DNA of 63,750 bases, counting the filler, from Reclinomonas americana ATCC 50394 (Eukaryota): assembly GCA_048213135.1 (NCBI GenBank). It is 4 parts of 3 records of this genome, joined end to end, with 100 filler letters (N's around TTAATTAATTAA, not from the genome) between each part and the next. Parts side by side here need not be neighbours in the genome. Positions count along the whole stretch, not along the records: positions 38,998 to 50,614 come from PS015079.1; 3 more parts are not named here. One strand, 5' to 3'. The position numbers and the translations under genes were made by a program. Each line of letters begins with the position of its first letter. The stretch's first letter is position 1. The notes under the pieces are model-generated. The model did no database searches. It was not told where the DNA came from and saw only the letters and a program-made list of their open reading frames with translations. Below are positions 799 to 62,700 of this stretch, in pieces.

Positions 799-1166
799 CC
801 ACCCCGGATCTGCCGTTTCTCAACCGTGTCGTTTCTCTGTACCTTCTTCATTTTGTAACTCTCTTTACAAGCCAAGCGGTCCCGTTTTGCATGCACCGAC
901 TCCGATTCCGGGCGCATCGGAGTGACAGCATGATAAAAACCCGGCAGCGTGACTGACTTCAAACGCGTTCACTGAGCAAACACACACAAACATACACACC
1001 GACACTGTGCTGCATATGAGCGATCTGATGGGCTCGTCACCTTCTCAGCAACAACAACAATCGACTGCCTCGGCCACCGGAGGTTCATCTGTCCTCGCAT
1101 GACTCCGCGAGTGTGTGTGTGTCTCTCTCTGTCTCTCTGTCCCTGTGTGTGCTTGTGACCTCCCTC

Positions 1167-10329: not shown

Positions 10330-12270
10330 CGTCGAGTCACATTTTATGGTTGCATGCAACACTATTTCGTCGCCGACAGTGTGGGTGGCGACTTCATGAG
10401 GCATGCGGAGCAGTGGTCTCAGTAACGTGAACAGCACATGGCGGAGAACGGCGAGGAGGGAGAGAACAACTTGATTGTTCTCCTCCTCGACTACAAGCGT
10501 GCCTACGACTCTGTGTGCCCCGAACTGATTGATCTCACACTGAAAGCGATGAACTTTCCTCCCTACATCGTCGACATGGTGGCAGACTGGATGCGGTACA
10601 TGCCGTTCTTCGCGACATGCCAGGAAGGCCTCCACACCAAGATCATGCACCAGAGGGTCGGCGTTCCCCAAGGCGACGTGCTGAGTCCGTTCATGTTCAA
10701 CCTCGTGGCCTCGATCTTCATCCGCCGCGTCAAGCAGCTGGAAGTCGGATACCGCTTTGCCAAGGATCCCTCCATCTGTGTTCACGTATCCGCCTTTGCT
10801 GATGATCGCCACGTGTGTCTCTCATCGGTGCAACAAGCGCAGATGGTCCTGGACGAGTCGCAACGGATCGGCGAATGGTCTGGCGTCAAGGACAACCCGG
10901 AGAAGTCGTTGGTCTTAATCTATGTGCCACTGGAAGCAGTTCGCGACTGCAACCTCACTCCTCTTCAGAAAGTCGATGCTATCCGCACCTTTATTCTGCC
11001 GAAAGCCACATTCGTCATGCAGTCTATCGATCTTACAGCAACCTTACTCAACGAGATTGACACCAAGCTCAGAGAGGCAGTGAGAGCTGCCACGGGGCTA
11101 GGAAAAGAAGCTGGCAACACAGTGATAGAGACACCGCTCTCCATGGGTGGGCTGGGAGTCCAATCCCTGGCCGACCGTCGCGCACCACTCCTCATCTCGT
11201 CGGCACACAAACTCCTCACGAGCGTGCGCACCCTTGTCAGAAATGTTGCACACAGAGTGAAGGCAGACACGATGGAGAAGTTTGCACTCTTGCCTGACAA
11301 CGCTGTCCCTCCCACCGACCACCTGTTCAAGAGAGAAGTCGTGCAGAACCACAAGGAGCTGCACCGCCAGCAGGTAGACGTCAATGCTCCCCCCCGTTTC
11401 TTTGACTTTCCCTTTGTCGCGAGAGAAGACGGTACCTTCGTGTTCAATGGTCAGCAGCCTGGAAAGACAGACAAGGCAGAGAACATCATCGCCACCGCAG
11501 CCACACTAGCAGCGAAGCACAGATTCAGCGTAGACTCCTACACCGATCCTGTCACCCAGAAGACCACCACGATTGGACGTCTCCCCGACAACACGACTGT
11601 CTTTCCGTTCACTGAGAAGTTTCTGAAGTCTGTCAACAAGTTTCAAGGAAAACAGAAGTCCGAGAAGTGGAGCGAAGAGGTGGCAGAAGAAAACGGAGAT
11701 GTGCACCCGAGAAAGTCAGGTCGCTTGCTTTCACTTACCGTCACGGTGCTGGCGCGCACGACTGCTTGAAAATCGGTCGTGGTCTGTATCCTAAACAGCA
11801 GTCTTTCGCCTTGAAACTGCGCACCAACTCTCTCTATCTCAACGCTACATACTCTAAACATCGCCACAACAATAACCCCATCATGGCGAGGTGCAGAGTG
11901 TGCAACATGGGACAGCCAGAGACAGTGGCGCACCTCTTGTGCTGGCACAGAAAGACAATGTGACGAGTCGGCACAACAGAGTGGCAACGATCTTGCACGA
12001 GGAACTCAGAGACTCGATTGTACACAGAGAGGCAGTCTTCTACACTGAGAAGGTCCCACAGAATTTGCTGGCAGCAGGAGAAGACCAGTTGGCTCTGTTG
12101 AAACCAGAGACATTGTGGCTGAAGAAGATGGGCATTGAGGGCGGCCAACTGCGCCGAGTGGTGGACAGATGGTGTGCCAAGGTCGTTGTCGGCAAGGGAT
12201 TTGTGGGCGTTTATCGCATTATTGGAATGTGGTGAATGAAGTGTTTTGTTTTTTGATACAAACAAAAAAA
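10330..12270 (+). mobile_element. Decayed, 5'-truncated non-LTR retrotransposon of the RLE class (R2/NeSL/Utopia-like)
   Basis: Intronless RT motifs LDYKRAYDSV, GVPQGDVLSPFMFN, AFADD and GGLGV. A CCHC-type knuckle (CRVC..ETVAHLLC), RHN and LKPE lie in shifted frames, with frameshifts near 11.7 and 11.96 kb. An A-rich tail is at ~12257-12270. Confidence 0.88.
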
Positions 12271-18527: not shown

Positions 18528-21500
18528 TTATGGTCGATCGCGTGACGCTGGCGATTCTCTCCGCGTCTGAGCCGCCTCGTCGGAGAACAAGATCTGACTG
18601 TAGCCCGGCTCGGGTGCCACGAACGCAAAGCCCTTGTCTGTGAAGGGGAGATGGGTAAGTGAGCGGTTTGGTGCCTCAACACACGCACGCAGACGCAACG
18701 TTGTGTCGGTGACATGCCGCGCGTCTCGGCGTCTGGTATCTCGCGCATCGCCTTGCTGCCGTCGTCGTCGTCCTCTTCCACCTGCTGCAGGCGCAGTCGG
18801 TGCAGGAGCGTTGGTCTGAACAACCAGCGCACCGCCAGCCAGGCAAAATCGCGGCTGAGACACGTCGCCACCACCAGCAGAATGACCAGTGGGGCGACAA
18901 AGTTGGAGAACAAGTCGTTGGCCACCCCGGTCATCTCGTAGAAGAGTGTCGAGCGCGACCACTGCAAGTGGTACTGGACCAGGAAGATGAAGCCGAAGAA
19001 GGAGCCGATGCTGAGCACAATAATCAGCATCGACACGACGCTGTACAGCTTGGTCTCCAGTGCCAGCTTGAAAGTGACCACCACGATCACCAGCGCGTAC
19101 ACCAGAGTGCCCATGATGTACAGATCGGCGTTGCGACCGTCTTGGAAGCCGACCGTGCCGCGGAAGGCCAGCATCACCGCACCCATGCACAGCAGCGAGT
19201 GCCAGAACGCGTTCATGATGTAGCCCAGGAAAGCACTGGTCGTAAACTGCACGCGCGCACAAAGGAGAATGAGTAAGCCACAAGACGGTGCAACACACAA
19301 GCGTGCACGGAGCGCAACGTAGTAATGTTTCGGTCCAAGCTTGTACACTTGAGCGAATTTGAGGCGCTTCGTCGGCACATCGCGCTGCGGCTGATCGTCC
19401 AGTGTCATGTCGACATCGAGGACGGCAAACAGCAGCACTGGCCAAGAGGTGAACAGCATGTTGTACATCGACAGGGTCCAGTTGTCGTACAGACTCTGCA
19501 TGTCGCACATGGTCAGCACGCAGTGGAGTCATTTTTACACACCACGCCGACAAACCGTGCCCGAAAAGCCGTTCATCAGCACAAACCAGAACTGCGTCAT
19601 GTACAACGCAATGTTCTTGTAGAAGCAGTAGAGAATGAGCTTGGAGATTCGCCTGTACGACATGCGACCGTGCACCAGCAGCAGCCTTTGCAAGAACCTG
19701 TCCAACCCACCACGAATGAGTACGGGTGGGAGTGACACCGATCAAACAAGCGTGCAGCGCCAGCGTACCGGAACTGCGAGATGGAATAGTCGCTGGACCG
19801 CGCCGCTTGCATGCCCTCATTGCCGCTGATGCCAATGCCTGCACACGTATCCCACAAAGTGAGCATCTTGTTTGCCGCGTGATCCACTGAATGATCCAAT
19901 CACATGTCCACGCACCGACATTGGCGGCCTGAATCATGGCACAGTCGTTGCCGCCGTCGCCAATGGCCAGCGTGACCGCACCGAGGGTCTCACGAATCAG
20001 CTTGACCACATCCGCCTTCTGCTTGGGCGACACACGGCAGCAGATGACGGCCTTGGCACGAATCGTCAACTCCAAGAACGACATGCGCTGCTCCGGCTGC
20101 AGTGCCATCTCCAACGCATCGCCGTCGAGCACAATGGCAATGTCGTCGAGGTTCGTGTCGAACTCGCCCAGTTCTTCGTCATCGCCTCCCTGCATCGCTC
20201 GCTCGTGTTTGCCGTGAATCACCTCGGCTTGCACCTGCGACAGCGCGCTGCCCATGTCGCGATAGAACTGCGCAGCTTGCCGATCGCCAAATCTCGACAA
20301 GTGCTCGGTAAACTATGTGTGTGTGTGTGCTCACATCAGCAAATGACTTTTGTGTGTGTGTGTGGCCTTCAGTGCGACAGTGGCACGCAACTTTGATCAT
20401 GCGCATGTCGTTGTTCAGCAACTTGCAGCTGTAGCCGACATTGATGGCGGTCTCCTGCTTGTCGCCCGTGAGCATCCACACTCGCATGCCCGCAGCATGC
20501 AGCGTCTGCAGCGTTTCCGACACGCCGTCCTGCAGGCGATCCTCAATGCCCGACACGCCCAACATGGACAGCTGCTGTTCCACCAAATTGTACGCCTCCG
20601 CCATCTACACGGCAAACATCCAGGTCAGCAAAGCCATCTTCTCTCGTGAAAAAAGGACAGCACTGCTGCACACACCAGTTCGGCGCGGCGAGCGGGATGA
20701 TCGACCGTGGAGCACGCCTGCAGATACAAGGTCGCAAACTCGCCGTACTCTTGCTCGCTCAACTCGCGCCGTGCAAACACCAGCGTGCGCAACCCGGCCT
20801 CGCCGTAGTCCTGCACGAGGACACCTCGAGTCAGCCACAGCACAAGCGGCAAAGACAATGACGGAGGAGACATCACCTTGAGGCGGTACTCCAGCGTGTC
20901 GTGCAGCTCGTGACTCTCGTGAGCCATCGCGGCCTCCACCGACTTTTCCCGCATGACCGTGTCTGCACCCTTCGCAAAGAGCACGCGAATACCTGTGACA
21001 CAAACAGAGAAATGAGCAACGACGTGCCAAGGCTGAGCGGAGAGTGAATACCACTCGCCATTGACATTGACAATGACCGACATCATGCGCCGATCGCTGG
21101 TGAACTCCAAAATGTGCTCAATGGTGAACTCGACCACTTCGCCTGTTCGTGTGTCCAACAGCGTCAACGACCTCGGCGTGCGCGACTGCACAAGAAAATA
21201 CACTCGACATGTGAGCTCCATCGACCGCGGCCACTACGTGCATCACAGCGGAGCTTCCACGCACCAGCAACGCAAAGCCGAGTTCGCGGGCGCCCTTGAC
21301 CAGCGCCTCCTCGTCGGGCGACGCCGACTGGTATTGAATGGCTGCAAAAAGGGGTATACCAATTGAGAGAGGGGCGGGCGCATGTCAGTCAAGTCACGCA
21401 AACGCAACCGTCCGTGGTCATGGCCGAGCCTCCTTCAGGCACGACAGTGTTGCACAGGTTGATGCACGTGAAGAATTCGCGAATCTGCTGGTACGCTGGC

Positions 21501-22600
21501 GAGTTGACGTTTTCCAGCTCCGAACGCAGCGGATGAATGTCACCCGGTTGCTGCAGGCCACGTGGTCACACAGTGAGACACGCAGTGTGTGCGTGTGTGA
21601 GAGAGAGACAGAGACAGGGAGACAGAAGTACCAGCGATGGGTACAGCTCGTAGCTGGCACCTGGAACGGCAAACTTGAGCAGCTTCATCTGGTTGCACGT
21701 CAAGGTGCCAGTCTTGTCGGAAAACACATACGTGACCTGTGCCAGTCGCACAACTCAGCATGCACTGCGGGTAGATGGGTGCGTGACACACACACACCTG
21801 ACCGAGTTCCTCGTTCAGCGCCGACGTCCTCGGTTCGGCTGGCGTCGTGACGCGAGTTCCATCGGCCTGCACTTGCTCGTAATGCATGCCCTTGTCCAGG
21901 CGAATGGCCACCGCTTGTGCAAACTTGACAATCTCCATCGACACGTACAGCGAGATGGGAATCAGGTTGTTGAACAGGATGAGGAAGGTGAAGAAGCCGA
22001 CGAGACCCTGCGTGGTCGGCGACGGACGTCTCGAAGCGTAAATGTACCACGCCGTGTACTCGCCATGCTCCTGCTCGCAACAGCATGAGACACACGCGTG
22101 TGTGCACAAAGAGAATACCACGCGGCATGCACGCAACGGTCCAGAAACCAATGCCCACGGCACACAACAAACAGAGGCCGATTTGAACAAGGAACAGGAT
22201 GAGGATGCACCGGTTGGTCAGTTGCTCCACCTGCCGCCGATGCCACGCGCAGTCAGTGACAAGACGCACGCACCCGGTGCGACGAAAGTGAACAAACCTG
22301 GCTCTGCTTGTGCTTCGGGTCGGTCATGTTGCGCATGATTTTCGAGTCGTGTCCCGTGTACACGACCACGCCAATGGCCCACTCGGTGTTCTTCACCGTG
22401 CTGCCGCGCAACAGCAGGTTCTCCAAGTGCAGCGGCACAGAGCGCAAGTTAGACTCAAAGACACCGTGGAACTCGCGCAGGTCCTTGTTCGGCGTCTCAC
22501 AGTTGATGACGCCGCGCATGGACTGGTAGACACTGAGCGTGTCCCGCATCTGGTACGTGCTGCTGACGCTCCGCTTCAGCTTGAGGTTGGTTTCGCTGCG
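18528..22600 (-). CDS. P4-type ATPase phospholipid flippase (Drs2/ATP8-like), ~16 exons, 5' end cut by a scaffold break
   Basis: [105 protein letters not shown] and YNMLFTS. Confidence 0.97.
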
Positions 22601-22633
22601 AAAACACACAGACGAGATGAGCTCTTCGTGATC

Positions 22634-22733
22634 NNNNNNNNNNNNNNNNNNNNNNNNNNNNNNNNNNNNNNNNNNNNTTAATTAATTAANNNNNNNNNNN
22701 NNNNNNNNNNNNNNNNNNNNNNNNNNNNNNNNN
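22634..22733. other. Artificial scaffold linker N44-TTAATTAATTAA-N44
   Basis: A six-frame-stop 12-mer sits between N runs and is identical at three positions in the window. Confidence 0.95.
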
Positions 22734-38897: not shown

Positions 38898-38997
38898 NNN
38901 NNNNNNNNNNNNNNNNNNNNNNNNNNNNNNNNNNNNNNNNNTTAATTAATTAANNNNNNNNNNNNNNNNNNNNNNNNNNNNNNNNNNNNNNNNNNNN
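38898..38997. other. Artificial scaffold linker N44-TTAATTAATTAA-N44
   Basis: Same linker as at 22634. Confidence 0.95.
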
Positions 38998-39456
38998 CAA
39001 CTCTGGCGTCTAGAAGGCGAAGAGATGGCAGCGAGAGAGAAGGGGAAAGAGGTGAATGTGTCGTGGGTGCTTGAAAGAGAATGCAAACTGGAAAAGTGTT
39101 GAGGTGCAAGCAGTGGAAGACAATGCACGAGTGGCGAAGGATAACAATGGAGTGACGCTGGCATGTGAACTGCAAGGACAGGGTTGAGTGGAGATGGGAG
39201 GCGGAGGAGGGGTGCCAACAGAGAGCGGGGGAATAGACGGAGCGAGAGAGATGTGTGGGAGAAGGCTAGGACACAAGTGCAGATGAGAGCATGACGTTGT
39301 GAAGCACAGACGGGTTGAATGGGTATGCGAGGTGGAGAAGAGGGGGGAGAAGTTGTGGAAGAAACAGAGTGGGAGGGCACAAGTGCAGACGAGAGAATGC
39401 ATGGCAACGCGGGGGGGGGGGGGGGATGCGACCAATGGCTGACTTGAGCGACACAG

Positions 39457-39638
39457 CAAAAGCGCAAGTCGAGTGGCATGGAATTGCTGAAGCTTGTCGG
39501 CCTCTCGCACATGCGAGAACAGTATCGAGTGGCGCGCGAGGCCAACGACCTTGCGGCGTGGCGTGCTGTGTTGCAGGTATGTGTGTGGGTGAGGGAGCGG
39601 GGAGAAGAGAAGAGAAGAGAGTGAGCGAGTGGCAGATT

Positions 39639-39672
<34 letters not shown>

Positions 39673-42600
39673 AGTAAAAGAGAAGAAGAGAAGGCTTGTG
39701 GTGACCAGTGAGGATGTCTGTGTGGCTGCGTGTGAGAGAGGAAGAGAGAGGACCGTGAATTAGTAAGTGTAGTGAGTGAGCGAGAGACGAAGTGAATGGG
39801 TGAGTAAAAGAGTGAGAGAGAAAAGGAGAGTGAGGGTATGCCAAGTGAGAATGTGAGGACGTGGAGTGAGCGTGCGAGAGAAAAATATGTCTTCGTGAGC
39901 GCGATGAATGAGGAGACGAAGTGAGTGAGTGACTACATGAGTGAGAGAGAAAAGAGGAGTGCATGAAGAGAGTACGTGAGTGAGTGAGTGAGTGTGAGAG
40001 AGAAAAGGAGAGCAAGTGAGCATGTGAGCGTGAGCGTGTGTGTCAGAGAGAGAGAAAGAAAACCACGTGTGAGTGAGTTGAGTGAATGAGGCAGGGATGA
40101 CACGAGTGAGTGAGCAATTGAGTGAGAAAAGGAGTGTGACTGCAGTGAGTGAGAGAGTGAGGCTGAGTGTGAGTGTGAGTGTGAGTGGGTGTGCGCAGAG
40201 AAAGAGAGAAATAGAGGCAAAGAGAGAGAACTGCGTGTGGTGAGCAATTGAGAGAGATAGAAAAGAAAGCGAGTGCAGTGAGTTCGTGAGTGAGGGCGTG
40301 GCTTTGTACATAAGAGTGAGAGACACCGTGTATTTGTAAGTGCAGCGGGAGAGAGAGAGAAAAGAAGTGTGCATGCAGTGAGTACGTAAGTGGGCGAGCG
40401 AGTGTGCGCAGAGAAAGAGAGAAATAGAGGCAATGAGAGAGAATCGCGTGTGGTGAGCAATTGAGTGAGAAAAAAACGATTGCAGTGAGTCCATGAGTAA
40501 GTGAATACGCCAGCAAGTGAATGAGTGGATGAGTGTGAAAGTGCCTGCCCTAGTCTGCGAATGGCTTTGTGTCAGTGTGCTCATCCCACTACGCAGACCG
40601 CCTACGACCACTACTCGCGCGAGAATGCACATCATCTGCGTATCTTCTTCAAGAACTCGATGGAGACGCTGCGCAAGCTGGAAGACGCCGATCGCACGCT
40701 GCGCAGTCACGACGACTACATCACGGCGCGCATTCTGAATGCTCGACTGACGGCCCACTCAAGGCGCGTCTCTTTTGTGCATCTGTCTTGCTGTCCACAC
40801 TCGCCATTCTTACACCACAGCAGCTACGACGCCGGTCACGATTCATTCGAGGCCATGTTTCTGTCGGGAGTGGGACGGCATTCGACTCATTTTTTCAACG
40901 AGTGGGGCTCGTTTGAGCGTGACAATGGTTCTCCCTCACTCTCCCCCCTCTCGCTCACCTTATCCAAAAGCCTCATCATGTCCCCCTTGCCAGGCCGACT
41001 GGAGAAATGGACCAAGCAGTTCCGCAAGGGCCACGGTCTCACCGAATCGGAGGCCGAGGAAGTGCTAGCGCGCCTCGCTGACGACCCCAGCGCTACATCA
41101 ATCTCCACCTGCTCCTCCTCGCGCACCTCGTCGTCCTCGGCCATTGACGCCACCGTAGACGACACCACCATTTGCGGTCTGCCGGAGGATCTGCAGACTC
41201 CGGCGGCAGACGACGACGTGCCGGCACCGTTCCAGATGACACCGCTGGTGTCGCCAATGCCGGGCCTCATGTCCACGCCCACGGTGGCCGGCGGTCTCGC
41301 CACACCGTCTCGGGATGCTTCGATGAGCGAGGAGCCGACCGTCATCTCCTTCAACACAACACCAAAATCACTATCCGGCACAGCCACCACCACGACCACC
41401 GTCACCACACCCGCCGCGCATGTCGACGACGACGACGAACCGACAGTGGTGACACGAACCCCGAAGCAGGTGGTGACCCCGACACTTCCAGCTGCTGCTG
41501 TGGCCGTGTTTGCGGACGCCGACGAGCCGACTGCCGTCATACCTGCACCGGCTCCCGCAGTAGTGTTTGCCAAGCCGCCACCCATGGGACCACCGCGACC
41601 ACGAGCCACTGCACCGCCACCACCAGCTGCTACAGCAACTGCGGCACCGGTAGAAGGCGACTCGACCGTGGTGTTCTCGCGACCCACTGGCGCCGCCAGC
41701 CGGACGGCGGCGGCACAGAAGCGGGCGCGCGGTGGTCTGCTGGCCAGCCTCGGATCGGCCAAGCGCGTGACACCGGCGGCCACTGCGGAGCCTGTCGACG
41801 GCGACGACGACGAGGCGACTGTGGTGGTGCCGACGGTCAAGCCCGCAGTTCCTGTTGTCGGAAAAGAGCCGGAGAAGTCATTGCTGGATGATGCACCGAC
41901 TGTGGTCGTCCAGCCTGCGCAGCCAGTACAATTGCCGCCACAGCCAGCAGTGGCACCGCCTCCGCCTGTGTTTGTCGCTCCTGCGCCAGTCGTAGTAGCA
42001 CCTGTGCGGCCAGTGGCGGAGACGCCCAAGCCGGCCGCACCCTCTTCGTCGCCGCCGAGGAAGGTGCTCTTCCGCGCCAGCGTGCCCACACCAGCAGCGC
42101 AGCCGCCACCGCAACCGCAGCAGCAGCCGCGCGCAACTCCGTCGAGCAGCAACAAGGTTTGTATAGCCCTCTTCAGTGCAATGCTTTTTGGTGATTCTCA
42201 CCTGCACGCAGCAGCAGGCCGCCAAATCACAGGCAGCACCCTCCAAATCGGTGGCAGCATTCGATGGCGAGAATATGGTCACGGTGAATGGAGTCCCCTA
42301 TCGCAAGCTGAAGATGATTGGACGTGGCGGGAGCTCCAAGGTGTTCCAGGTGCTGAGCGAGAGCTACGAAATCTACGCGCTCAAGAAGGTCTCCCTCAAC
42401 GGCCTGGACGAGGACACGATCGCCTCGTTTGTCAACGAGATTGCGTTGCTGCAGAGTCTGCACGGCCTCAAATTTGTCGTGCAACTCATTGACTCGGAGG
42501 TCAACTATGAGCAGAAAGTGCTGTACATGGTTTGTTGCAGTCACCGCAACCATCAGTCCATTATCCACACTGTGCTGAACACGCCATCTTCTTTGCCAGG

Positions 42601-43677
42601 TGATGGAGTGCGGTGAAATCGACCTGAACCACCGCTTGCACGAGGAGCAGGAGAGCGGCCTCGACGGCACCATTCTGCGTTCGTTCTGGCACGGCATGCT
42701 CAAGGCCGTGCAGTCGATTCACGAGCGTGGCATTGTGCACGGCGACTTGAAGCCGGCCAATTTCATGCTCGTCAAGGGCAAGGTCAAGCTCATCGACTTT
42801 GGCATCGCCAAGGCCATCCAGGGCGACACCACGAACATTATGCGCGACACACAGGTCGGCACGCTGAATTACATGTCGCCCGAGGCCTTTGTAGACACGG
42901 CAAAGGGACGCGGTCAGGGCCCGTGCATGAAGGTGGGTGATTGATTTCCCTTGTCGCTGAAGATACTGTGTTTTTTCTGACTCGCGAGTGACGCATACAC
43001 AGCTCGGCCGAGCCTCTGACATTTGGTCCATGGGCTGCATCCTGTACCAGATGGTGTTTGGTCGTCCGCCGCTGCACCACTTGTCGATTGTGCAAAAACT
43101 GCAGATGCTCTCCAATCCCAACCTCAAAATCACCATTCCCGACTGCAACAATCCCGATCTCAAGGACGTGCTGGAGCGGTGGGTGCTCTTTCGTGAAGAC
43201 GCCTGCATTTCGCTATCTATCACTCACTCATATTGTGTCGACAGTTGCCTGCAACGCGATCCGACACGGAGACCACTGACGGGTGACCTGCTGGAGCACC
43301 CATTCTTGCGTCCTGCGGCACCACCATCAGCACCGCCACCAGCACCAGCTGTTACCACCGTCGCCACTGCCGAAGATCACCAAGGAGGTGCGGCGATTTC
43401 ACTGTCGGTCGCCGACGTGGAGCGCATCGCCCGCGACCTAGCGACGCACACGGGCGCCGAGCCGTCGATCATCCTCCAACACTTGCGCCGCGGCGTGAAT
43501 GGTGGTGGTGGTGGTGCGCCGATGCCTCCTCCCACGACGTCGACGTCGTCGACAGTCTCCCCCGACGACCCCACGGTGTTGGGGCTGGAGACGGTGGATG
43601 TCGACGAGCCGACGGTCGCCGTCGCACCTCCGCCGCCGCCTGCTGCCGCGCGCGCTCCTCCTCCGCGAGCCCCGCGT
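39457..43677 (+). CDS. MPS1: Mps1/TTK spindle-checkpoint kinase with an N-terminal Mad3/Bub1-like TPR; 3' end runs into a gap
   Basis: [96 protein letters not shown] and [22 protein letters not shown]-like stretch: [20 protein letters not shown]. Confidence 0.93.
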
Positions 43678-44118
43678 NNNNNNNNNNNNNNNNNNNNNNN
43701 NNNNNNNNNNNNNNNNNNNNNNNNNNNNNNNNNNNNNNNNNNNNNNNNNNNNNNNNNNNNNNNNNNNNNNNNNNNNNNNNNNNNNNNNNNNNNNNNNNNN
43801 NNNNNNNNNNNNNNNNNNNNNNNNNNNNNNNNNNNNNNNNNNNNNNNNNNNNNNNNNNNNNNNNNNNNNNNNNNNNNNNNNNNNNNNNNNNNNNNNNNNN
43901 NNNNNNNNNNNNNNNNNNNNNNNNNNNNNNNNNNNNNNNNNNNNNNNNNNNNNNNNNNNNNNNNNNNNNNNNNNNNNNNNNNNNNNNNNNNNNNNNNNNN
44001 NNNNNNNNNNNNNNNNNNNNNNNNNNNNNNNNNNNNNNNNNNNNNNNNNNNNNNNNNNNNNNNNNNNNNNNNNNNNNNNNNNNNNNNNNNNNNNNNNNNN
44101 NNNNNNNNNCCCCTCCCA

Positions 44119-44352
44119 TCATACCGTCCACTCCTCCGTCGCCTCCTCGCCCTTCCCCTCCCCCCCACTAATCTGCCGCATCCTCTGGAACAACGGATTG
44201 CTCTCCTCCTCCTGCCGAATGGCCGCCTCCCTTCGCTCCTCCTGCAGCTTCTGCAGCGACGGAGCCGCGGCCAGACTGCGGTTCTGAATCGCATTCTTCA
44301 GCTCGGCCTCAAAGGGCACGGCTGGCGCAGGTGGCCGTTCCACCACGGGCGG
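44119..44352 (-). CDS. Orphan 3' coding fragment with a WH2/C/A-like ending (possibly the inverted 3' end of the Mps1 gene)
   Basis: PPVVERPPAPAVPFEAELKNAIQNRSLAAAP...SNPLFQRMRQISGGEGKGEEATEEWTV*, on a small contig between two gaps. Confidence 0.45.
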   Translation of the reverse strand, partial: PPVVERPPAPAVPFEAELKNAIQNRSLAAAPSLQKLQEERREAAIRQEEESNPLFQRMRQISGGEGKGEEATEEWTV

Positions 44353-45646
44353 NNNNNNNNNNNNNNNNNNNNNNNNNNNNNNNNNNNNNNNNNNNNNNNN
44401 NNNNNNNNNNNNNNNNNNNNNNNNNNNNNNNNNNNNNNNNNNNNNNNNNNNNNNNNNNNNNNNNNNNNNNNNNNNNNNNNNNNNNNNNNNNNNNNNNNNN
44501 NNNNNNNNNNNNNNNNNNNNNNNNNNNNNNNNNNNNNNNNNNNNNNNNNNNNNNNNNNNNNNNNNNNNNNNNNNNNNNNNNNNNNNNNNNNNNNNNNNNN
44601 NNNNNNNNNNNNNNNNNNNNNNNNNNNNNNNNNNNNNNNNNNNNNNNNNNNNNNNNNNNNNNNNNNNNNNNNNNNNNNNNNNNNNNNNNNNNNNNNNNNN
44701 NNNNNNNNNNNNNNNNNNNNNNNNNNNNNNNNNNNNNNNNNNNNNNNNNNNNNNNNNNNNNNNNNNNNNNNNNNNNNNNNNNNNNNNNNNNNNNNNNNNN
44801 NNNNNNNNNNNNNNNNNNNNNNNNNNNNNNNNNNNNNNNNNNNNNNNNNNNNNNNNNNNNNNNNNNNNNNNNNNNNNNNNNNNNNNNNNNNNNNNNNNNN
44901 NNNNNNNNNNNNNNNNNNNNNNNNNNNNNNNNNNNNNNNNNNNNNNNNNNNNNNNNNNNNNNNNNNNNNNNNNNNNNNNNNNNNNNNNNNNNNNNNNNNN
45001 NNNNNNNNNNNNNNNNNNNNNNNNNNNNNNNNNNNNNNNNNNNNNNNNNNNNNNNNNNNNNNNNNNNNNNNNNNNNNNNNNNNNNNNNNNNNNNNNNNNN
45101 NNNNNNNNNNNNNNNNNNNNNNNNNNNNNNNNNNNNNNNNNNNNNNNNNNNNNNNNNNNNNNNNNNNNNNNNNNNNNNNNNNNNNNNNNNNNNNNNNNNN
45201 NNNNNNNNNNNNNNNNNNNNNNNNNNNNNNNNNNNNNNNNNNNNNNNNNNNNNNNNNNNNNNNNNNNNNNNNNNNNNNNNNNNNNNNNNNNNNAAGAAGG
45301 GGGGGTGGAAGGGGGGAGAGATGGGGAGAATTTGACGGGAAAATAATTTTGAGAAGAACAATGAATGTGTTAATGGAATAGGATGGGGGGGAAGGGGGAG
45401 GGGGAGGGGGAAAGGGGGAAGGCAGGCGTGCCAGACAGCAACGATGGCACACGAGCAATAGCCACACTACCCACCGGAACATCACCAGCCCGAGTTATCG
45501 CAGTGATTGGCCTCTGCGCTCTCCGTTCGTGACTCTTCCACTCAATTTGTGGTGCATGTCACTCCTGTTCCGCCTCTCCTGCAGCACCGTGCCCTGATCT
45601 CCTCTTCTCCTTCTCATTAGCTTGTATTCACCCTTTCCCTCGGCAT

Positions 45647-48600
45647 CTACCACTGCTCATCCTCCTCCTCATCATCGTCATCGGCGCCACCGCCATTCGC
45701 CTTGCCCTTCATGCTCCGGCGACGATTGGCCATCTTGCCATACAACTCCTCCATCACTCCACTCGGCGGTGCCACATTCGGGCGAGGGACCTACGCAACG
45801 TATGTAAGCGACGCAAAACATACATCCTCCTCGTCTGACCCATTCTACGTACCACAATCGGCCGCTCCGCCAGTGGCGGCGCCTTTTTCAGGGCCACAGA
45901 CCCACGCCAAATGTCGTCCATCACCATCGATCGCAGATCCATTCGCGGACTGCTGTGTGCGTTGCCTGCACCGCTGCCGACCTCGTGTGAAGCGGCGGAG
46001 GGTAGCCTGGGTGAGGCGGGGGACGGCAACAATGCGGGCGGCGGCGGAGGCGGTGGTGGAGGTGGAGGCGGGGGCGGTGGTGGAGGTGGTGGCGATGACG
46101 CTGCTGGTGGTGCGGGTGGTCGCTCTGCCATTGTCACCGGCGGTGACGCCGGCGGCGACCTGGGCGATCGCACCGGGGACGCGACAGGGAGCGAATGCGA
46201 CGCCGGCGCCGGCGCTGGTGGTGGTTGCGACGGCGACGAGGTCGGCGAGCTCGCCAGTGCGCGAGGAGACGGCGACGTTGGCAGTGTGGGCGGAGAGCGT
46301 GGCGTTCGTGGACTGCCGTTTCGTTCGCTATCATACTACACATCACTCGCGGCGGCCAGCGCCGGCTCCCGTGGCGGCGGTCGAGATGCAGGTGCAAGAG
46401 GAGGTGGAGCAGCTGCAGCGGCGGGGTTATCGGCAGCAGCGGCAGNNNNNNNNNNNNNNNNNNNNGTCGAGATGCAGGTGCAAGAGGAGGTGGAGTCAGC
46501 TGTCAGCGCGGGGTTATCGGCGAGCGAGGCGGCGAGAGGCGGGGGCGTGCAGCGACGGGGCGGGGGCGGCAGCGGCGGGGGCGGGGGCGGCAGCGGCGGG
46601 GGCAGCGACAGCAGCCAATGGCGGAATCTGTGATGCTTACGACTGAGTGACGATATACAACAAAAAATCATCAGAGTGTGACACGGCGGACCAGTGAACA
46701 AACGTCAAAGTGCTGCGAGCGTGCCGGATAGAACTCGACGACCGGCGGCACCTTCTCGACCTCCGTTCCAGCAAAGAGGTTCCACTCGGCATTCCCGTCG
46801 ACCATTTGCAGGCGCTTGGTCCAGCAGTCGTCACCCAACACCGACTCCTCAACGCTGCGACACAGCTCCTGGTGCAGGCACGCGTACCGATCCAGGGCGC
46901 TGTGCACGGCGGTGGCGCGCTCCGCCATGGCCGCCCTCACTTGCTCCCGGGCGGCATCCAGTCGGATGCGATGCTGGTCCTCGACCACCGCCAGTGCCTC
47001 GCGTGCCGCCGTGACATCCTCTTCAGTGCCCTTGGCCGCCGCCAGTGCCGCCTCTGCCGCAAAAACACCCTTCAGCGCAGCCTCTTGACGTCGGCGGAAT
47101 CTGGCATCGTTGCTTTCGATGGTGGCGGCCTGTGCAGAGAGTTGGTCGGCTCGCCCATCCAACTCCAACGCCAAATTGTGCAACTCCGCCGCCAGCCACT
47201 CATGAATGTCCATCACCATCAGCGGCGAACTGCGCGCCTCCATCCACAGTGCGTGCAGGGAGCCCACGTCGAATCGCAGACCGTCAACAATTCCCGTCTT
47301 GCTCTTCACCACCAACGACCGCAATGCGGCCACGTGCGCTGCACGACTACTTGACTCCGCATCCAAATGCTCCGCCATCACCGTCACCTGCTGCGCGGCA
47401 CTTCGTACCTGCTCGGCGAGGGCGGCCAGAGACGGTGCCGTGTATGGCGATCGAACGCCGTCGGCAGCAACAGCAGCGTCAAGCCGAGCGTGACGCGCCA
47501 GCAGACTCTGTTCGAGTGCGCGCCCGAGCGCTTGCTTGGAGGAAGCGTACGACGTAAGCGTGACAATAACCGTAGCCGTGCACGAGTGATGCGCCGTCCA
47601 TAGCACCCGCCGTGCTTCCGGTAGCTGCGCCAAGTACGTGTTGCGCATGGCCGTGTGCGCCTGCACGGCTTGCCAGTACGCCAATGTGTGTGCATGTGCA
47701 CGTGCATACGCCTGCTGCTGCTCCTCGGCCGCCTGACTGGAGGAGGGACTGGCCGACGGTGCAGCGACCACCGTCATCTCGGCGCGCTCCAATGCTGCGA
47801 CCTGCGTGCGCCGTCTCTGCCAACAACAAACACAAACAAGTTCGAGTGAGCGCGCGCGAACGACCATGCACACGACGCATGTGTATGTCAGCCAAGCACC
47901 TCTTCCACTTGAGTGGCCAGTCGCGTCAGCTCCTTTTGCAAGCGCGTAATCTCCTTCATCGACTGCGTCACCTGCTGCCGCGACGTCTCCGCCGTGGACA
48001 GGAGCAGCGGCAGCAAGTGTGCGGTCACCGTGCGCGACCAGAACGCGTACTGCGACGCACAAATCTCCGCATGCTGCAACACGACGCCATGCATGGTCTC
48101 AATGCTCGTTCTGTGCGATCGGGTAAGTATACAGTACGCGCCTCCTCTGTCTGTGCCGCAAGAGTGAGTGTGCATACCTGACACCCGAGGGCGGTGGTGG
48201 CGGCGCCGGCAATCGCGAAGCCGGCAGGCGCGGCAACCGCGAGGCAAACTTGTCGACCAGACGCGCCTCTGCACGCAGAAAGTCGACCACACTGCTCACA
48301 AACAGCAGCTCCTGTCGCATCTGTGTCTCGGCGTGCGTCACGGAGAAGGTGTCGGTGGTGGGATCCACATTGGCCGGGCGCAGGCTGTTGCGACGACGCG
48401 GTCCACCACTGCGATCAAAACAGTGAGAGGGAGGGAGGGAGGGGAGGGGGGAGTGAGTGTGTGTGAGAGAGAGGTAGGGAGAAAGAAAGAGTAGACGCAA
48501 CGAGGCAACAACCGATCGATAGGCATCAGCGCCCGCGACGAAGGGCGCAGTCTGTGAGGCTCAGTGAGTGAGTGCGTATGTGTATGTGTGCAAGAGTGTG

Positions 48601-48765
48601 CAAGTGTGTGTGCAAGTGGGGGAGACGCACCTGTGAGCCACGTTGAGCGGCACGAGAGCGTGGTTGTGACGGTCCACTATTCACACCAACACCTTCGAAG
48701 GCGTCAACACGATCGGGGCCATTCCAGGGAGCAATGCGCGGGGCCTTTGAGGAGCAGCTGCCCAT
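45647..48765 (-). CDS. N-acylated F-BAR-domain protein with a polyproline tract and C-terminal WH2-C-A (WASP-family-like Arp2/3 activator)
   Basis: MGSCSSK start. F-BAR-like helices: RQELLFVSSVVDFLRAEARLVDKFASRL...QKELTRL...RNTYLAQLP. Then a P17 tract, WH2 RSMVMDDIWRGSVALKKA, and a last exon GVMEELYGKMANRRRSM...DDDDEEEDEQW*. Confidence 0.75.
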
Positions 48766-48930
48766 TCTCTGCGCTGCTTGCGAATAGTTGCTGGTGCGAC
48801 TCGCAGTATACATAATATTTCTGTCCGCCAGCGCACGCATTGGAATTGATACACTGGTCTAATAATAACTATTAGTTCAAGTTCCCTGCGACCAAAACAA
48901 CGAGACCTCCATCATCGTCCCTCCCGCTGT

Positions 48931-49314
48931 TCACGCAACAACTTGGCCAGCGCACCTGGACCCGGTCAGCGACTCTTGTACCAGCAGGTCGTCATCTTGC
49001 CGTCGCCGGCGTCGTTGATAGGCCTGCATAAAGTAAATCAATTCGCATGCACACCAGCAGCCACGCTCAAAGTACGCGCAACTTGCTGGAGCAGACGACC
49101 GCGTTCCACCTCACGCTGCCGATTGGCACTCACTCGCGATCTGATGGAGAGTGGCGTCACGGCACTGACGCGCGAGTTGGAAGTGGCGGCCAGCGGAGTA
49201 TGTGTACGCGCAGCTGGCGATGCCGCAGCGCTGCTCACCACGGTGGGTGCGAGTGGCGACATGGAGGCCCGATGGTGCTCCTGGCGACGTGCCAACAGAC
49301 TCCACCGAACTGGT

Positions 49315-49345
<31 letters not shown>

Positions 49346-50215
49346 CTCGCGTCTGTGATGCGCCACCATCCTCGTCGCTGTCGTCGGTCGACGATAGCAG
49401 CGAGCGCAGCACGTTGCTGTCGCTTCCTTTCAGCCGGATGCTGCGAATCACCTCTGTGGTCCACTGAGCCTGCTCCTGTCGCCGCTGACGTGCCACTTGC
49501 AGCGGTCTCGAGTCATCGCCGCCGCGTGCGTCGTCACTGCTGGCCACCAGGGGTGCGGGCAGCACTGACAATGGGGGACACGGAGCCGGCCGCACCGCTC
49601 TGCAACCAAAATATGAAAAGATCCACCACCATGGCACACTTACCAGCAGTGTCTCACGTACCTCGAGCTGCAAGAACACCGACTCCGGAGCCACCCCGGC
49701 CGCCGCATCTTCCACACCTTCCCGTCCGCAGTTACCATCTTCCTCTACATCCTCTACAGCCTCCTCCTCCTCCTCCTCATCGTACCACGGCGAGGAAGAC
49801 GCCGTCGAGGCGCCACTCTCCTCCTCCTCCTCTGCGTCTTCCTCGTCTTCCAGGTCCCACTCACCGTCGCTGTCGTCCTCGGCAGAACTCTCGTCGTCGA
49901 CATCAAACGTCAGCGGTCGCAGTGACTGAGTCGCCGTCAGCAGGAATACAAACAGCAGCACGCAGGCACACATCCAACAGACCTGAATGGCACTCAGTCG
50001 CATCGACACACGAGAGGAGACGCGCAGCGAGTCGCGCGACATGAGCGTGCTCACGGGAGCCGCCGCCAGCGGTGCCGGCGGATCGGCTGCAGCAGTGCCA
50101 CCCAGCCACTGCTCGGCAAATGAGACCAAGTTCGCTTCAAAAGACGGAGATAGGTGCACATGCTGGTTTCACTGGATACAAACGATTGCTTTTTCTACTG
50201 TCCCTCACGCACACG
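48931..50215 (-). CDS. 3' part of a hypothetical acidic, low-complexity protein
   Basis: A long ORF with D/E tracts and poly-Q, interrupted by short GT-AG introns. The 5' end is lost at the scaffold break. Confidence 0.5.
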
Positions 50216-50511
50216 TACGTGTGTAGCGTGTTGTGTGGGGGTGGGTGATGGGTGGTGGTTGTTGCGTGTGGTGGCGTCAGTTGTAGTTGTTGCGTGTGGA
50301 AGATTGTTTGGGTGGGGTGGGACTGGTCGCGTGGCACAGACACAGAGCGAGACATATATGGAAGGGGGGGAGTGGACAAGTGCGTTTTGTTTCGACGAGA
50401 TAAGCGCGTGGGGGGAGGGGGGATTACACGTACCGTCACTGGTGGGGCAGTCCGTGGTCTGCTGGGAGGGAGAAGGGGAAAGTGAGAGAGAGAGGTAAGT
50501 AGCGGGCAGAC

Positions 50512-50612
<101 letters not shown>

Positions 50613-50614
50613 TA

Positions 50615-50714
50615 NNNNNNNNNNNNNNNNNNNNNNNNNNNNNNNNNNNNNNNNNNNNTTAATTAATTAANNNNNNNNNNNNNNNNNNNNNNNNNNNNNN
50701 NNNNNNNNNNNNNN
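50615..50714. other. Artificial scaffold linker N44-TTAATTAATTAA-N44
   Basis: Same linker as at 22634. Confidence 0.95.
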
Positions 50715-57114: not shown

Positions 57115-59272
57115 AGAGAGNNNNNNNNNNNNNNNNNNNNNNNNNNNNNNNNNNNNNNNNNNNNNNNNNNNNNNNNNNNNNNNNNNNNNNNNNNNNNNNN
57201 NNNNNNNNNNNNNNNNNNNNNNNNNNNNNNNNNNNNNNNNNNNNNNNNNNNNNNNNNNNNNNNNNNNNNNNNNNNNNNNNNNNNNNNNNNNNNNNNNNNN
57301 NNNNNNNNNNNNNNNNNNNNNNNNNNNNNNNNNNNNNNNNNNNNNNNNNNNNNNNNNNNNNNNNNNNNNNNNNNNNNNNNNNNNNNNNNNNNNNNNNNNN
57401 NNNNNNNNNNNNNNNNNNNNNNNNNNNNNNNNNNNNNNNNNNNNNNNNNNNNNNNNNNNNNNNNNNNNNNNNNNNNNNNNNNNNNNNNNNNNNNNNNNNN
57501 NNNNNNNNNNNNNNNNNNNNNNNNNNNNNNNNNNNNNNNNNNNNNNNNNNNNNNNNNNNNNNNNNNNNNNNNNNNNNNNNNNNNNNNNNNNNNNNNNNNN
57601 NNNNNNNNNNNNNNNNNNNNNNNNNNNNNNNNNNNNNNNNNNNNNNNNNNNNNNNNNNNNNNNNNNNNNNNNNNNNNNNNNNNNNNNNNNNNNNNNNNNN
57701 NNNNNNNNNNNNNNNNNNNNNNNNNNNNNNNNNNNNNNNNNNNNCTTCTCTCTCTTCTCTCTCTCTCCTTCTCTCTCTCCCTCTCTCACTCACTGTCTGT
57801 GTTCTGCAGGAACGCTGTCGATCACCAACCTGCGCTTGATATGGGTGTCGCAAAAGAAGGCCAACATCAATCTCTCCGTCGGCTACAACTGCGTGATCAA
57901 CATCACGATTCACACGGCGAACTCGCGGCTGCGAGGTCACACACAGGCGTTGTACATTCTCACCAAGTTCAACAATAGTCGCTTCGAGGTCGGTGCTTCA
58001 TGGTGTTGGCAGAGTTGTCGCGCGTGTCGATTGCCTGACTGTAAGTTCTCTGTGCCGCAAGTTCATCTTTACGAACCTCGTCAAGAACAGCCCGCGGCTG
58101 TTTACCACGGTGCAAGCTGTGCACAGGTGCATCATCTCACCACTTTCGGAGTCATGTGCACGGCGCTTACACGTGTGAACAGAGCATACGAGACAAGTCG
58201 GTTGTATCGTGATCTCAAATTGCGTGGAGCCATCATTCGCGAGAAGGAGCTGTGCTTGCTGCCAAAGGAGCAGGTGTTCAGCCGTGTCAACGGTGTGTGG
58301 AATCTCTCCTCTGATCAGGGCAACCTCGGCACGTTCTATATCACGAACGTGCGCATTGTATGGTGCGTCGTGCTCTCGTGTTTGTGAAGACACTGGTTCG
58401 ACGATTGACGTCCGTTCTCTCTCTCTCTCTCTCTGTGTGTGTATGTGTGTGTCTGTCTCTCTGTCTGTCTGTCTGTGTGTGCCTGTCTGTCTGTTTGTTT
58501 ATTTGTCTCTCTCCTTTCTCTCTCTTCGTTTGCCTGTTCTCTCTCTCCCTCTCTCTCTCTCTGTGTGTGTGTGTGTGTCTGTCTGTCTGTGTGTGCCTGT
58601 CTGTCTGTTGTTTATTTGTCTCTCTCCTTTCTCTCCCTCTCGCTCTGTATGTGCGTGCCTGTCTCTCTATCTATCTATCTGTCTTCGTCTTCTCCCTCTT
58701 CTCCCTCCCCCCCTCTCTCTTCCCCCCCCTCCTCTCCCTTGCAGGTTCGCCAACTTGGCTGAGAACTTCAACGTGTCGATCCCGTTTCTGCAAATCAAGA
58801 CCATCAAGGTCCGCGACTCCAAGTTCGGCAAGGCGCTGGTGATTGAGACGTCGCCCAGCAGTGGCGGTTACGTCCTCGGTTTCCGCATCGATCCGCTGGA
58901 GAAGCTGAATCAGGTGTTTGAGGAGATTCAGAACCTGCACAAGCTGTTCTCGGCCAAGCCCATTTTCGGTGTCGACTATGTCAGCGAGGACAAGGTGTGG
59001 GCGTAGTGATTGGTTGATCATCATCATTTTCTGTTCGTCGTCGTGGCTAACTGTCCTCTCAGCCCCCGACACTAAAAGATGTGACGGTGCCGAGGGCGGA
59101 GGAGAAAGTCGAAGTGATTGAGACGGAGGACGAGGTGGCCGATGCGTTTGCGGCCTACTACGCCGACACGAACAAAAATGTGGACCGGGAGCCCATTTTC
59201 AGCGCGGAGCTCGGGCTGGCCATTGAGCGACCAAAGGACGGGGTCACTCTCGAGATGTTGTGGAAGGTGTGA
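56731..59272 (+). CDS. BBS5: Bardet-Biedl syndrome 5 protein (BBSome subunit), 7 exons
   Basis: [79 protein letters not shown] and [10 protein letters not shown]. Confidence 0.97.
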
Positions 59273-59788: not shown

Positions 59789-62700
59789 TCACAGAATCTT
59801 GTTCCGGAAGTCCTCCAGCTTCTTCGCCACTTCTGTGGGTGTGCGATCGAGTTCGCCCGCAATCTCGCGTTGCTTCGCCGCGTCAATGGTGGTGAATTGT
59901 TCGCACAAGTCACCGTCGCATGTTGCCTGCGGGGGGAAACAAGTGAGTCGCGCGACTCGACAGACTTGTTGGGATACAAACACACACCTTGACTGGGTAG
60001 TAATACGAGCGGAACGCCATGTGATCGCGACCGCACAGTGGCGGGTGTTCTTGCCGCATGTGCATCTCCAGCGCGCTGTAAAACTCCACATCCTCGGCGG
60101 TGGCGAACGGAGCAAAGCAGCCAATGGCACCACTCTGTGTCGTGTAGACCAGCGTGTCGGCGCCGCCCAGCATCAACGAACACCGCTGCAATCGTGTGAT
60201 AATGTCGCCCAAGTGGAATTGCACAATCTCCTCAGCCTGGTTGTGCGTGCACACACGAGTGAGACGATATCGCAAACGAGGACATGTATGTGTCTGTGTG
60301 AGGGCGCAACTCTGTACGGTGCTCCATTCAGGTAGCCGCGCTCCCACAGGAATCGCTCGCCCATGTCCTCCGCCGCCTTCTCGGCCACGTCCTTGGAGAG
60401 TCGGCACACGAAGAGGTTGCCGAATTTGTCGCCACCTGGGAAGGCGAAGGGAGACGGGGGATGTAAGCAAAGGGAAAGCGAAACAGAGACAATGAAACCG
60501 GCACGCATGCGTGAACACAGACGCACGCACAGAGAGAGAGAGAGAGAGAGAAGGGAAGAGAGCAAGAATGCAAGAAAGAGAGACAGACAATGACACAGGC
60601 GCGTACTGTCGCGCATGAACATGGATGCATGCACAGAGAGAAGACAACGGAGGACGGGTCAGAAGGGAGAAGGAAGGAGAAGGAGATTAAGGAACGAAAG
60701 AAAAGAGAATGAGAGAAAATGATGCGTGACGATGATAGCAGTGGTGTGTGTGAGGGTGAAAAGGGGGAAGGATTGATGTCGTTAGAGAGAAGGAGAGAGA
60801 GAAAAAGGGAGATAGATAGAGGAGAGAGTGTGAGAGAGAGAGAAAGAGAGGAGAGACAGACAGACAAACACATGGACACACGCAAACACAGAGAGAGAAG
60901 AGAAGAGAGAACAAGAATGTATGTATGAAAGAGAGAAACAGAGAGTGACAAAGATGCATGCACAACGAGCGACGGGAGGAAACAGAGATGGAGCACGACT
61001 GCATCGGAGAAGAAGAGATAATGGCAGGCGCGTACTGTCGTTCATGCATGCATAGAGAGAAAGACTAACAAAGAACGCAAGAATGAAAGAACGAATAGAT
61101 ACACGGGAGAAGAGAGACTATGTCACAGGTGCATACTTGCATGCACGAACACACACGCTTGTACTGAGAGTGAGAAAGAGAGACACCATGGCAAAGGCGT
61201 GTACTGTCATCCATGAACACACACGTATGCTAAGAAAGAAAGAGAGAGAAAGAGAGAGAAAGACAGAAAAAACAACACACTCACACAAACTCTCTCTCTT
61301 CCCCCCTCTCCCCCTCCCTCTCTCCCTTCCCCTCTCTCCCTTCCCCTCTCTCCCTCCCTCTCTCCCATCCACCACTCACCAGCCAAGGTGTTGGCATCGA
61401 CAAACTCGGAGGCCACCACCCACCGCGGTGCGACATCGTCAGCAAAGATCGAGATGGTGTTGTCGCGACGGTTGTACGACGCGAAGTGGAAGCTCTCCGT
61501 AATGTCGCTCACGTAGATGCGATCGTGGAACACGCGGATCGAGGTGATGAAGTTGGGGAAGTTCTGCAAGCACGCGTGAGACGACAGCCGTCGGCGCGCT
61601 CAAGGAACGGAGAGGGAGCGCACCCTGTTTTCACACTTGCGCAGGAGCTTCTTCTTGCCGAGATCGTACAGACGCAGAGTCTTGCCGACACCAGCCAGAA
61701 GGCGACCGTCGAAAGCAGCAATGGCATACGGCACATCCTTGACTGGTGTCTGCGAGTGGCCAACAAGCGTGAGATCAAGCGGCACAAGTGGTGGTGTGCA
61801 CACATACGATCGGCAAACCTTGTGCAGCAGGTCGAGCTTGTAGCCTTCACGCATGCGATACACGTACAAGAAGCCGCAGCTCGCGGAGCGTTCGGGCCAG
61901 AACGACAGGTCCTTGGCGGTGCCGACGACCAAGAAAATCTCCTGGCCGAACTGACATGTGCACACGCTGAACGCTGCCTCGTTGTCCTCCAGCTCCACCA
62001 AGTCCAGTGTTCTCATCTGGGTCGAGTGAGGGTGAGGGAGGGCAAAAAGAAAGAAAGAGGGGGAACAAAAAGGACGCACCGACACCGGGTCAAAGATGCG
62101 AATGCACGATGCCCACTTGCCGGTTGGCGCTTTGATGGGGTACAGATCGCGGTCGTGCTCGACGGCGGAACCGGATCCTGAGCCGCCGGCGCCCTCCTGT
62201 CACCACACAAAGTGAGTGAACAACATGAAGCGAAGAGGGAGAGGGAAAAGGGGGGGAGAGAGAGAGGGAGGAGAGGTGAGAGGGAGAGGGAGAGGGAGGA
62301 GGGGGAGGGGGAGGGAGAGGGAGAGGGAGAGAGGAACGGAGACTCACAAACACACAATAGAGAGAGGCGTAGGGAGAGATAAAGAGAAAGAGATTCGGAC
62401 AATCACAGCAGAGAGAGGAAGGATAAGGACAGGGAGGATAAAGGAGAACATGAGGACGGAGAATTGAGGTACGCCACACACAAAACAGAGAGTGAGGGAG
62501 ACAGAGACTCACAGACGGATTCAGACGAAGAGTGGGATTGATTCACACAAACAGCGGAGAGAGAGAGGAGGGAGAGACACAGAGAGAAGCAGACTCACAG
62601 ACACAAGGACACACCCGATGAACAGATGAAAGAGAAAAGACTCACACGGATTGAGACACACACGGGAGCAAACAAACAACGAAGAGACAGAGAGAGGGAG

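Follow-up and report, generated by a model that had tools for sequence, protein, structure and literature searches.

A probable WASP-family variant, its helical N-terminus an orphan, in a draft scaffold of Reclinomonas americana

The sequence analysed here (the window) is a 63,750-nucleotide stretch of draft genomic DNA from Reclinomonas americana ATCC 50394 (assembly GCA_048213135.1), eukaryotic, rich in introns and with a GC content of about 0.57. The gene of interest lies on the minus strand, confined to the part of the window at positions 38998-50614 (record PS015079.1). Its predicted exons would encode a long helical domain followed by a proline-rich region (PPR), a single WH2 motif, a central (C) motif and an acidic (A) tail, and on balance this is probably one gene of about 790-820 codons whose product would be a nucleation-promoting factor of class I (the WASP-family type). 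That product is best described as a probable new variant within the WASP family whose helical N-terminus is an orphan, and for which a BAR fold and a lipid anchor are put forward as hypotheses.

Exon layout and the C-terminal module

The features of the gene are as follows, in the direction of transcription.

48631..48765, minus strand: candidate exon 1, opening with the ATG of MGSCSSK, which may be a myristoylation/palmitoylation motif; the donor at 48630 is GTGCGT
48502..48551, minus strand: candidate mini-exon of 50 nt, flanked by introns of 79 and 93 nt, which frames exon 1 with the next exon
48178..48408, minus strand: exon 2b, where the helical region begins, with a short Pro-rich loop at its end and an alternative ATG at 48320 (codon bias)
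47900..48110, minus strand: exon 3, helical, 70 amino acids (aa) (codon bias)
46704..47816, minus strand: exon 4, 371 aa, long helices and a non-helical tail (codon bias); its open frame would extend to TGA 46673-46671
46628..46703, minus strand: candidate intron of 76 nt, GTTTGT..CACAG, AT-richer and with a T-rich tract, resembling the other short introns
46336..46627, minus strand: link region, GC-rich, with Pro/Ala-codon-like repeats and a 20-N gap
45853..46335, minus strand: exon 5, Ser/Pro-rich linker, polyproline run and WH2-type motif, with an internal ATG at 46131
45791..45852, minus strand: intron of 62 nt, GTACGT..GCGTAG, separating the WH2 exon from the C-A exon; its CTNAY is 14 nt away from the 3′ splice site
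45647..45790, minus strand: last exon (exon 6), C motif, acidic tail, Trp and stop TAG 45649-45647

Coding potential was assessed with a frame-specific codon-bias test, in which the frame of each exon was compared with the alternative frames. Frame preference was clear for exon 2b (0.199 versus -0.187 and -0.077), with values of 0.232 for exon 3, 0.134 for exon 4 (versus -0.234 and -0.148) and 0.357, the highest in the gene, for the last exon; exon 5 gave weak values (0.014 and 0.071). The exons spanning 48408-46704 are clearly coding and comprise about 500 all-helical residues.

At the motif level the PPR-WH2-C-A module is real, its elements standing in the correct order on the minus strand. 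The polyproline run lies in the Ser/Pro-rich exon, N-terminal to the WH2-C-A segment (VCA), and counts 19 consecutive Pro (46092-46036), not the 17 given in a preliminary description of the locus. A single WH2-type motif follows at 45933-45880. In the passages of Kollmar, Lbik and Enge (2012, PMC3298513) used throughout this comparison, the WH2 (V) motif consists of a helix core of hydrophobic residues and, after it, L-[KR]-[KR]-[VTA], and the motif found here fits the published pattern save for a Trp in place of [KRQ]. Because Trp stands there in this sequence, the pattern was searched with the [KRQ] position omitted, and gave one match when the window was translated in all six frames, compared with a mean of 0.04 per shuffle (100 shuffles) and 13 matches in total over 500 further window shuffles. 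A WH2 match followed within 30-400 nt by the acidic-Trp-stop pattern occurred once in the window and in none of 500 shuffles; the acidic-Trp-stop pattern by itself occurred three times (versus 0.53 per shuffle). Comparison of the WH2 exon with PDB sequences using phmmer returned no matches.

The central motif VMEELYGKMANRRRSM (45757-45710) has V, L and M at three-residue spacing, then RRR and M, satisfying the C motif rule as worded in the same passages of PMC3298513 (three large hydrophobics with three residues between each, two or three basic residues in a row, and a hydrophobic at the end). This motif counts only in context, because the loose C-motif pattern is frequent by itself, with 34 matches in the window compared with 25.4 in shuffles. 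The acidic tail DDDDEEEDEQW and its TAG occupy 45685-45647. Residues 4-47 of the last exon (to its final residue) are collinear with the N-WASP CA segment of the chimera chain 7t5q_J, at a non-significant E value of 3. The WH2-like motif, central helix motif and terminal DDDDEEEDEQW of the preliminary description were all located, the first of them unique in the window and rare in shuffles, and its reading of this tail as that of an Arp2/3 nucleation-promoting factor is supported at the motif level. The module as a whole argues for a WASP-family type Arp2/3 activator.

Elsewhere in the window, tandem repeats with a unit of about 78 nt (about 14750-15180, plus strand) translate into an iterated VGAGLLLNVDVGRRLL-like unit, with recurrent matches of the loose C-motif pattern.

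The 5′ end and the helical region

The predicted protein would start at ATG 48765, which opens MGSCSSK in the context A-3/G+4. Further upstream, downstream of a stop at 48861, are two in-frame ATGs (48840 and 48813) whose context is weaker, and ATG 48320 within exon 2b is an alternative start. Exon 1 has no in-frame join to the strong acceptor at 48409. It can be brought in frame to the acceptor at 48552, either by read-through of a pyrimidine-rich low-complexity stretch (819-aa model) or by way of the 50-nt mini-exon (788-aa model), and the mini-exon route is the more plausible. For dual acylation (SH4-like), the consensus asks that translation truly begin at a Met-Gly, with Ser/Thr in position 6 and a Cys close by. 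MGSCSSK is a plausible candidate start. The motif on which the earlier proposal of myristoylation and palmitoylation was based is therefore present at 48765, but the anchor would depend on a putative start codon with two in-frame ATGs upstream and ambiguous codon bias.

Exons 2b, 3 and 4 are joined in frame by GT-AG introns of 67 and 83 nt. An AlphaFold model of exon 4, made with no alignment, predicted helices at residues 26-118, 127-176, 198-261 and 265-325 (50-93 residues in length) with a pLDDT of 53, and a second AlphaFold model (residues 120-340) had a pLDDT of 64. The preliminary description called the long helices amphipathic, which was not confirmed: shuffled sequences reached their hydrophobic periodicity. 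Residues 1-327 of the model have a net charge of +12 and the block that follows one of -10. The stretch DGNAEWNLF..PPVVEFY, described earlier as resembling an F-BAR tail, is present at 46799-46728, in the non-helical tail of exon 4.

The assignment of this region to the F-BAR family was not supported. With exons 2b, 3 and 4 scanned separately, so that any FCH region would be split across exons, Pfam returned no actin- or membrane-relevant family at E ≤ 1, with no FCH, BAR or IMD match, and WH1, basic-CRIB and GBD were likewise without a Pfam match. Exon 4 had no phmmer match at E ≤ 0.001 among 1.84 billion representative proteins, exons 4 and 2b had none among PDB sequences, and exon 3 gave only coiled-coil rows in the PDB (phmmer, E 0.14-1.2) and generic coiled coils as ESM Atlas neighbours. 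When both models were compared with the PDB using Foldseek, nothing was found at E ≤ 0.001, and the top rows reached E 2.9 (an ABC transporter) and E 1.6 (EnvC). The F-BAR chains of PSTPIP1, Cdc15 and syndapin, as well as I-BAR/IMD chains, were among the rows of both low-confidence models at E 2.0-9.5, with probability ≤ 0.13 and a TM-score normalised to the query (TMq) ≤ 0.30, and stood side by side with ABC transporters, SMC and coiled coils of the axoneme; the VIA rows were generic helical hairpins. In the ESM Atlas the named rows listed for exon 4 were FCH/F-BAR at 0.84-0.87, below the 0.9 line used for a lead only, and the recognition value was 2031 against a mark of 2300. Among the neighbours of exon 4 that carry a family, the top ten all fall into one family or clan, an outcome that one third of shuffled proteins also give.

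A second BAR-like block had also been proposed. Similarity between two internal halves of about 220 residues each gave a local score of 58, which was reached by 54 of 2000 shuffles, and the reversed-sequence control scored 55; the tandem duplication was rejected. As far as these comparisons go, the region upstream of the VCA is an all-helical orphan of about 500 predicted residues with no detectable relatives. A BAR-superfamily fold is possible; given one gene, a true BAR or F-BAR fold is less likely than not, though by no means remote.

A homologue search with the WH2 region among longer proteins gave none at E ≤ 10, and exact-match scans of metagenome contigs (30-mer and 36-mer) gave no matches. 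Little weight attaches to such negative outcomes, since the conserved neighbouring genes themselves reach just 26% (P4-ATPase) and 48% (SelR) identity, and the organism is therefore without close relatives in the collection of 5.8 billion proteins searched.

The link region and neighbouring genes

In the stretch that separates exon 4 from the WH2 exon, the frame of exon 4 terminates at TGA 46673-46671, the frame that follows the 76-nt intron at TAA 46516-46514, and the WH2 frame has TAG 46338-46336 immediately 5′ of the WH2 open reading frame (ORF). The 76-nt intron (46703-46628; GC 0.45, with its T-rich tract) removes the TGA and opens into Ala/Pro codons. The 20-N gap at 46446-46465 is flanked by a perfect 30-nt direct repeat (46380-46409 and 46466-46495), and the repeat in which it lies has two copies that differ by small indels. 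Since the same repeat stands on both sides, the gap sits inside one repeat array. GC content is 0.71-0.75 in the link region, 0.61-0.70 in the exons (0.70 in the Pro-rich exon) and 0.52-0.55 in the flanks, and this exon-like composition suggests that the link is coding, with disruption from the gap and from draft errors.

Complete in-frame GT-AG models with a single terminal stop could be built at 819, 788 and 804 aa. The link can be bridged in frame by a single intron, either 46703-46336 or, after a short Ala/Pro exon, 46556-46313. These linking introns measure 244-368 nt plus the gap, have a GC content of 0.67-0.68, are pyrimidine-poor and contain no CTNAY, whereas the five supported introns measure 62-93 nt, with a GC content of 0.48-0.56 and CTNAY 13-30 nt from the acceptor. 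In the P4-ATPase gene of the window, four of the five listed inter-block gaps measure 53-94 nt, and the fifth (23 nt) is too short for an intron. Introns of 34 or 29 nt that would excise TAG 46338-46336 were rejected, being far below both the supported introns and the 53-nt shortest P4-ATPase gap; the 29-nt version also breaks the reading frame.

The window holds 17 N runs (4412 N in total). Three spacers (22634-22733, 38898-38997 and 50615-50714) are identical, 100 nt each, of the form N44-TTAATTAATTAA-N44, with stops in all six frames. They are artificial linkers and the window is a concatenation of separate scaffolds, so the order and orientation of the joined scaffolds are possibly not real. 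Matches of the neighbouring ORFs include SelR, protein kinases, P4-ATPase, U-box, BBS5, CPSF_A and reverse transcriptase, and the main neighbouring features are as follows.

1159-1833, plus strand: SelR/MsrB ORF (E 1e-42)
10426-11766, plus strand: RVT_1 ORF of 447 aa (E 7e-17), probably a retroelement
18545-22618, minus strand: P4-type phospholipid flippase gene, at least nine aligned blocks, most separated by 53-94 nt
49038-50168, minus strand: upstream neighbour ORF of 376 aa, with abundant acidic, poly-Gln and hydrophobic stretches
58179-59003, plus strand: BBS5 exon
59913-62199, minus strand: CPSF_A-family exons (DDB1/SF3B3/CPSF160-like)

In the 5.8-billion-protein collection, the top identity of the C-terminal ORF of the P4-ATPase was 26%, and the top relatives of the SelR/MsrB ORF, which have PF24046 as an additional N-terminal domain along with a Yippee-like match, were 41-48% identical. 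The presence of BBS5 suggests that the organism builds cilia. About 270 nt separate the stop of the upstream neighbour (49038) from ATG 48765, and the promoter and 5′ untranslated region of the studied gene are therefore short. No shared poly(A) or terminator motif was seen on inspection by eye of three 3′ ends.

Alternative explanations and comparison with known systems

The preliminary description took the locus to encode one spliced protein, a claim that is made plausible by the in-frame GT-AG models and the exon-like GC content of the link, and weakened by the gap, the stops in every frame and the atypical introns found there. A number of observations weigh against a single WASP-family type gene. 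Stops occur in all three frames between the helical and WH2 exons, the linking introns are unlike the supported ones, and ATG 46131, in strong context (A-3/G+4), could open a separate PPR-VCA protein of about 140 aa; codon bias is ambiguous for exon 1 (0.058 versus 0.043), the low-complexity stretch and exon 5a; Pfam gave no WH2 match at E ≤ 10 on the WH2 exon; the hydrophobic periodicity of the four long helices was equalled by 61-247 of 300 shuffles; and a homologue showing conserved architecture was not found in the searched libraries, which are themselves poor in close relatives. The stops, the linking introns and ATG 46131, together with the TAG directly 5′ of the WH2 ORF and the short local intergenic spacing (about 270 nt on the upstream side), favour two neighbouring genes on the same strand, one helical and possibly lipid-anchored, ending at TGA 46673-46671 or TAA 46516-46514, and the other encoding PPR-WH2-C-A from ATG 46131. 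Such a pair is unlikely in our view, given that the link has an exon-like GC content, that the 76-nt intron implies coding beyond the TGA into Pro/Ala codons, that an out-of-frame ATG at about 46331 (66-codon ORF) precedes ATG 46131, and that a free PPR-VCA with no N-terminal domain fits none of the WASP subfamilies in the passages used of PMC3298513. The same stops could instead reflect a decaying or mis-assembled locus, either a pseudogene in which they are real or a gap hiding further sequence or a further domain, in which case the architecture seen would be an artefact of assembly; the draft state of the sequence (17 N runs, three of them artificial linkers) and the small indels between the repeat copies around the gap are consistent with this. 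It is a very improbable explanation: the ORFs are intact with strong frame-specific codon bias in exons 2b, 3, 4 and 6, the C-A exon and its splice sites are intact and well formed, and the repeat flanking both sides argues for a small gap in one array.

A different question is whether the N-terminus is a true F-BAR domain, possibly in tandem, that would couple a lipid anchor and curvature sensing to Arp2/3 activation. The FCH/F-BAR rows of the ESM Atlas provide a weak lead towards it, F-BAR and I-BAR/IMD chains recur in the weak Foldseek rows of both models, the helices are of 50-93 residues and the N-terminal half is basic, and yet the exons have no FCH, BAR or IMD match in Pfam, no PDB sequence match was found for the domain apart from the coiled-coil rows of exon 3, which by itself resembles a generic coiled coil, the Foldseek rows are mixed with unrelated coiled coils and come from models of low confidence, and the tandem signal fails its reversed control. 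We consider an F-BAR N-terminus improbable. Similarly speculative is a polypeptide, dually acylated at its N-terminus, in which a dimeric helical scaffold of BAR-superfamily type, lacking relatives in sequence, precedes PPR-WH2-C-A. It would by itself be anchored to the membrane and couple curvature to Arp2/3 activation, and would form a new subfamily with an origin independent of the Entamoeba protein WAML described below.

One minus-strand gene is favoured because members of the WASP family in the passages used of PMC3298513 all have an N-terminal domain before the PPR, because the 76-nt intron implies coding past the TGA, because the composition of the link is exon-like, and because an identical repeat stands on either side of the gap. 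From these features we infer a single transcript whose product would combine membrane anchoring with Arp2/3 activation. By analogy with the family, the PPR would bring in profilin-actin or SH3 partners, an actin monomer would attach to the single WH2 motif, and the central helix and acidic tail, which ends in Trp, would bind Arp2/3 and switch this complex on. The lineage-restricted helical domain of about 500 residues would occupy the place of WH1, WHD, WAHD or IMD. The net basic charge of its first ~330 residues (+12), together with MGSCSSK, suggests that it probably targets the protein to a membrane, on which it may perhaps oligomerise the protein.

WASP-family proteins are classified by their N-terminal domain, which sets where and when Arp2/3 builds branched actin. 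Toca-1/FBP17/CIP4 and Bzz1 are F-BAR proteins that recruit WASP in trans via SH3-polyproline contacts, and MIM/ABBA combine an I-BAR domain with WH2 but are without the C-A needed for Arp2/3. The likeness to these proteins lies in the proposed logic, a curved-membrane scaffold tied to actin assembly, but Toca and Bzz1 act with WASP as two proteins and MIM/ABBA have no C-A, whereas here a covalent joining is predicted and the BAR fold is hypothetical. At the level of titles and abstracts, no published case of an F-BAR + WCA fusion was found, and only the paper of Kollmar and colleagues was relevant.

With N-WASP and WASP the predicted protein shares the PPR, a WH2-type motif with LKK[A/V], a C helix with spaced hydrophobics and then basics, and an acidic tail with a near-terminal Trp; the collinearity of the C-A exon with N-WASP CA is not significant. 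It differs from them in having a single WH2, in the Pfam-level lack of WH1, basic-CRIB and GBD, and in the residue after the WH2 helix core, which is Trp here and K/R/Q in the pattern as published in PMC3298513. WHAMM and JMY are alike in overall layout and size, with an N-terminal region, a long coiled coil, a PPR and WCA, whereas the N-terminal exons here match no Pfam family. The passages used of PMC3298513 describe WHAMM and JMY as metazoan and WHAMM as metazoa-specific, with two tandem WH2 motifs in the vertebrate WHAMM homologues compared with one here, and treat the third WH2 predicted for class-2 WHAMM as most likely an artefact.

The closest described architecture is that of Entamoeba WAML (WASP and MIM like), reported from three Entamoeba species as IMD + WAID + PPR + VCA, for which the authors proposed a BAR/IMD-type membrane function fused with Arp2/3 activation (PMC3298513, in the passages used here). 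The preliminary description did not recognise its architecture among characterised activators; as a claim of an unprecedented arrangement this overlooks WAML, in which the IMD, a BAR-superfamily domain, precedes PPR and VCA. In both proteins a helical domain is followed by PPR and VCA, with neither a WH1 domain nor a CRIB motif. As far as the published description of WAML goes, its helical domain is an IMD/I-BAR and membrane-deforming, whereas the one here has no IMD match in Pfam and no detectable sequence relation, and is about twice as long; WAML is described with a WAID autoinhibitory segment; the present protein has a candidate N-terminal acylation motif; and WAML is known from Entamoeba only, whereas the protein described here belongs to a GC-rich, intron-rich genome that encodes BBS5, of a presumably ciliated organism. 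The significance of the locus is limited for now. According to the same passages of PMC3298513, a VCA behind a PPR with a different N-terminal domain constitutes a new subfamily. If the one-gene model is true, the locus would represent a new WASP subfamily with an orphan helical domain, perhaps with a lipid anchor, in an apparently ciliated eukaryote, and would be the second case after WAML of a membrane scaffold and nucleation in a single chain.

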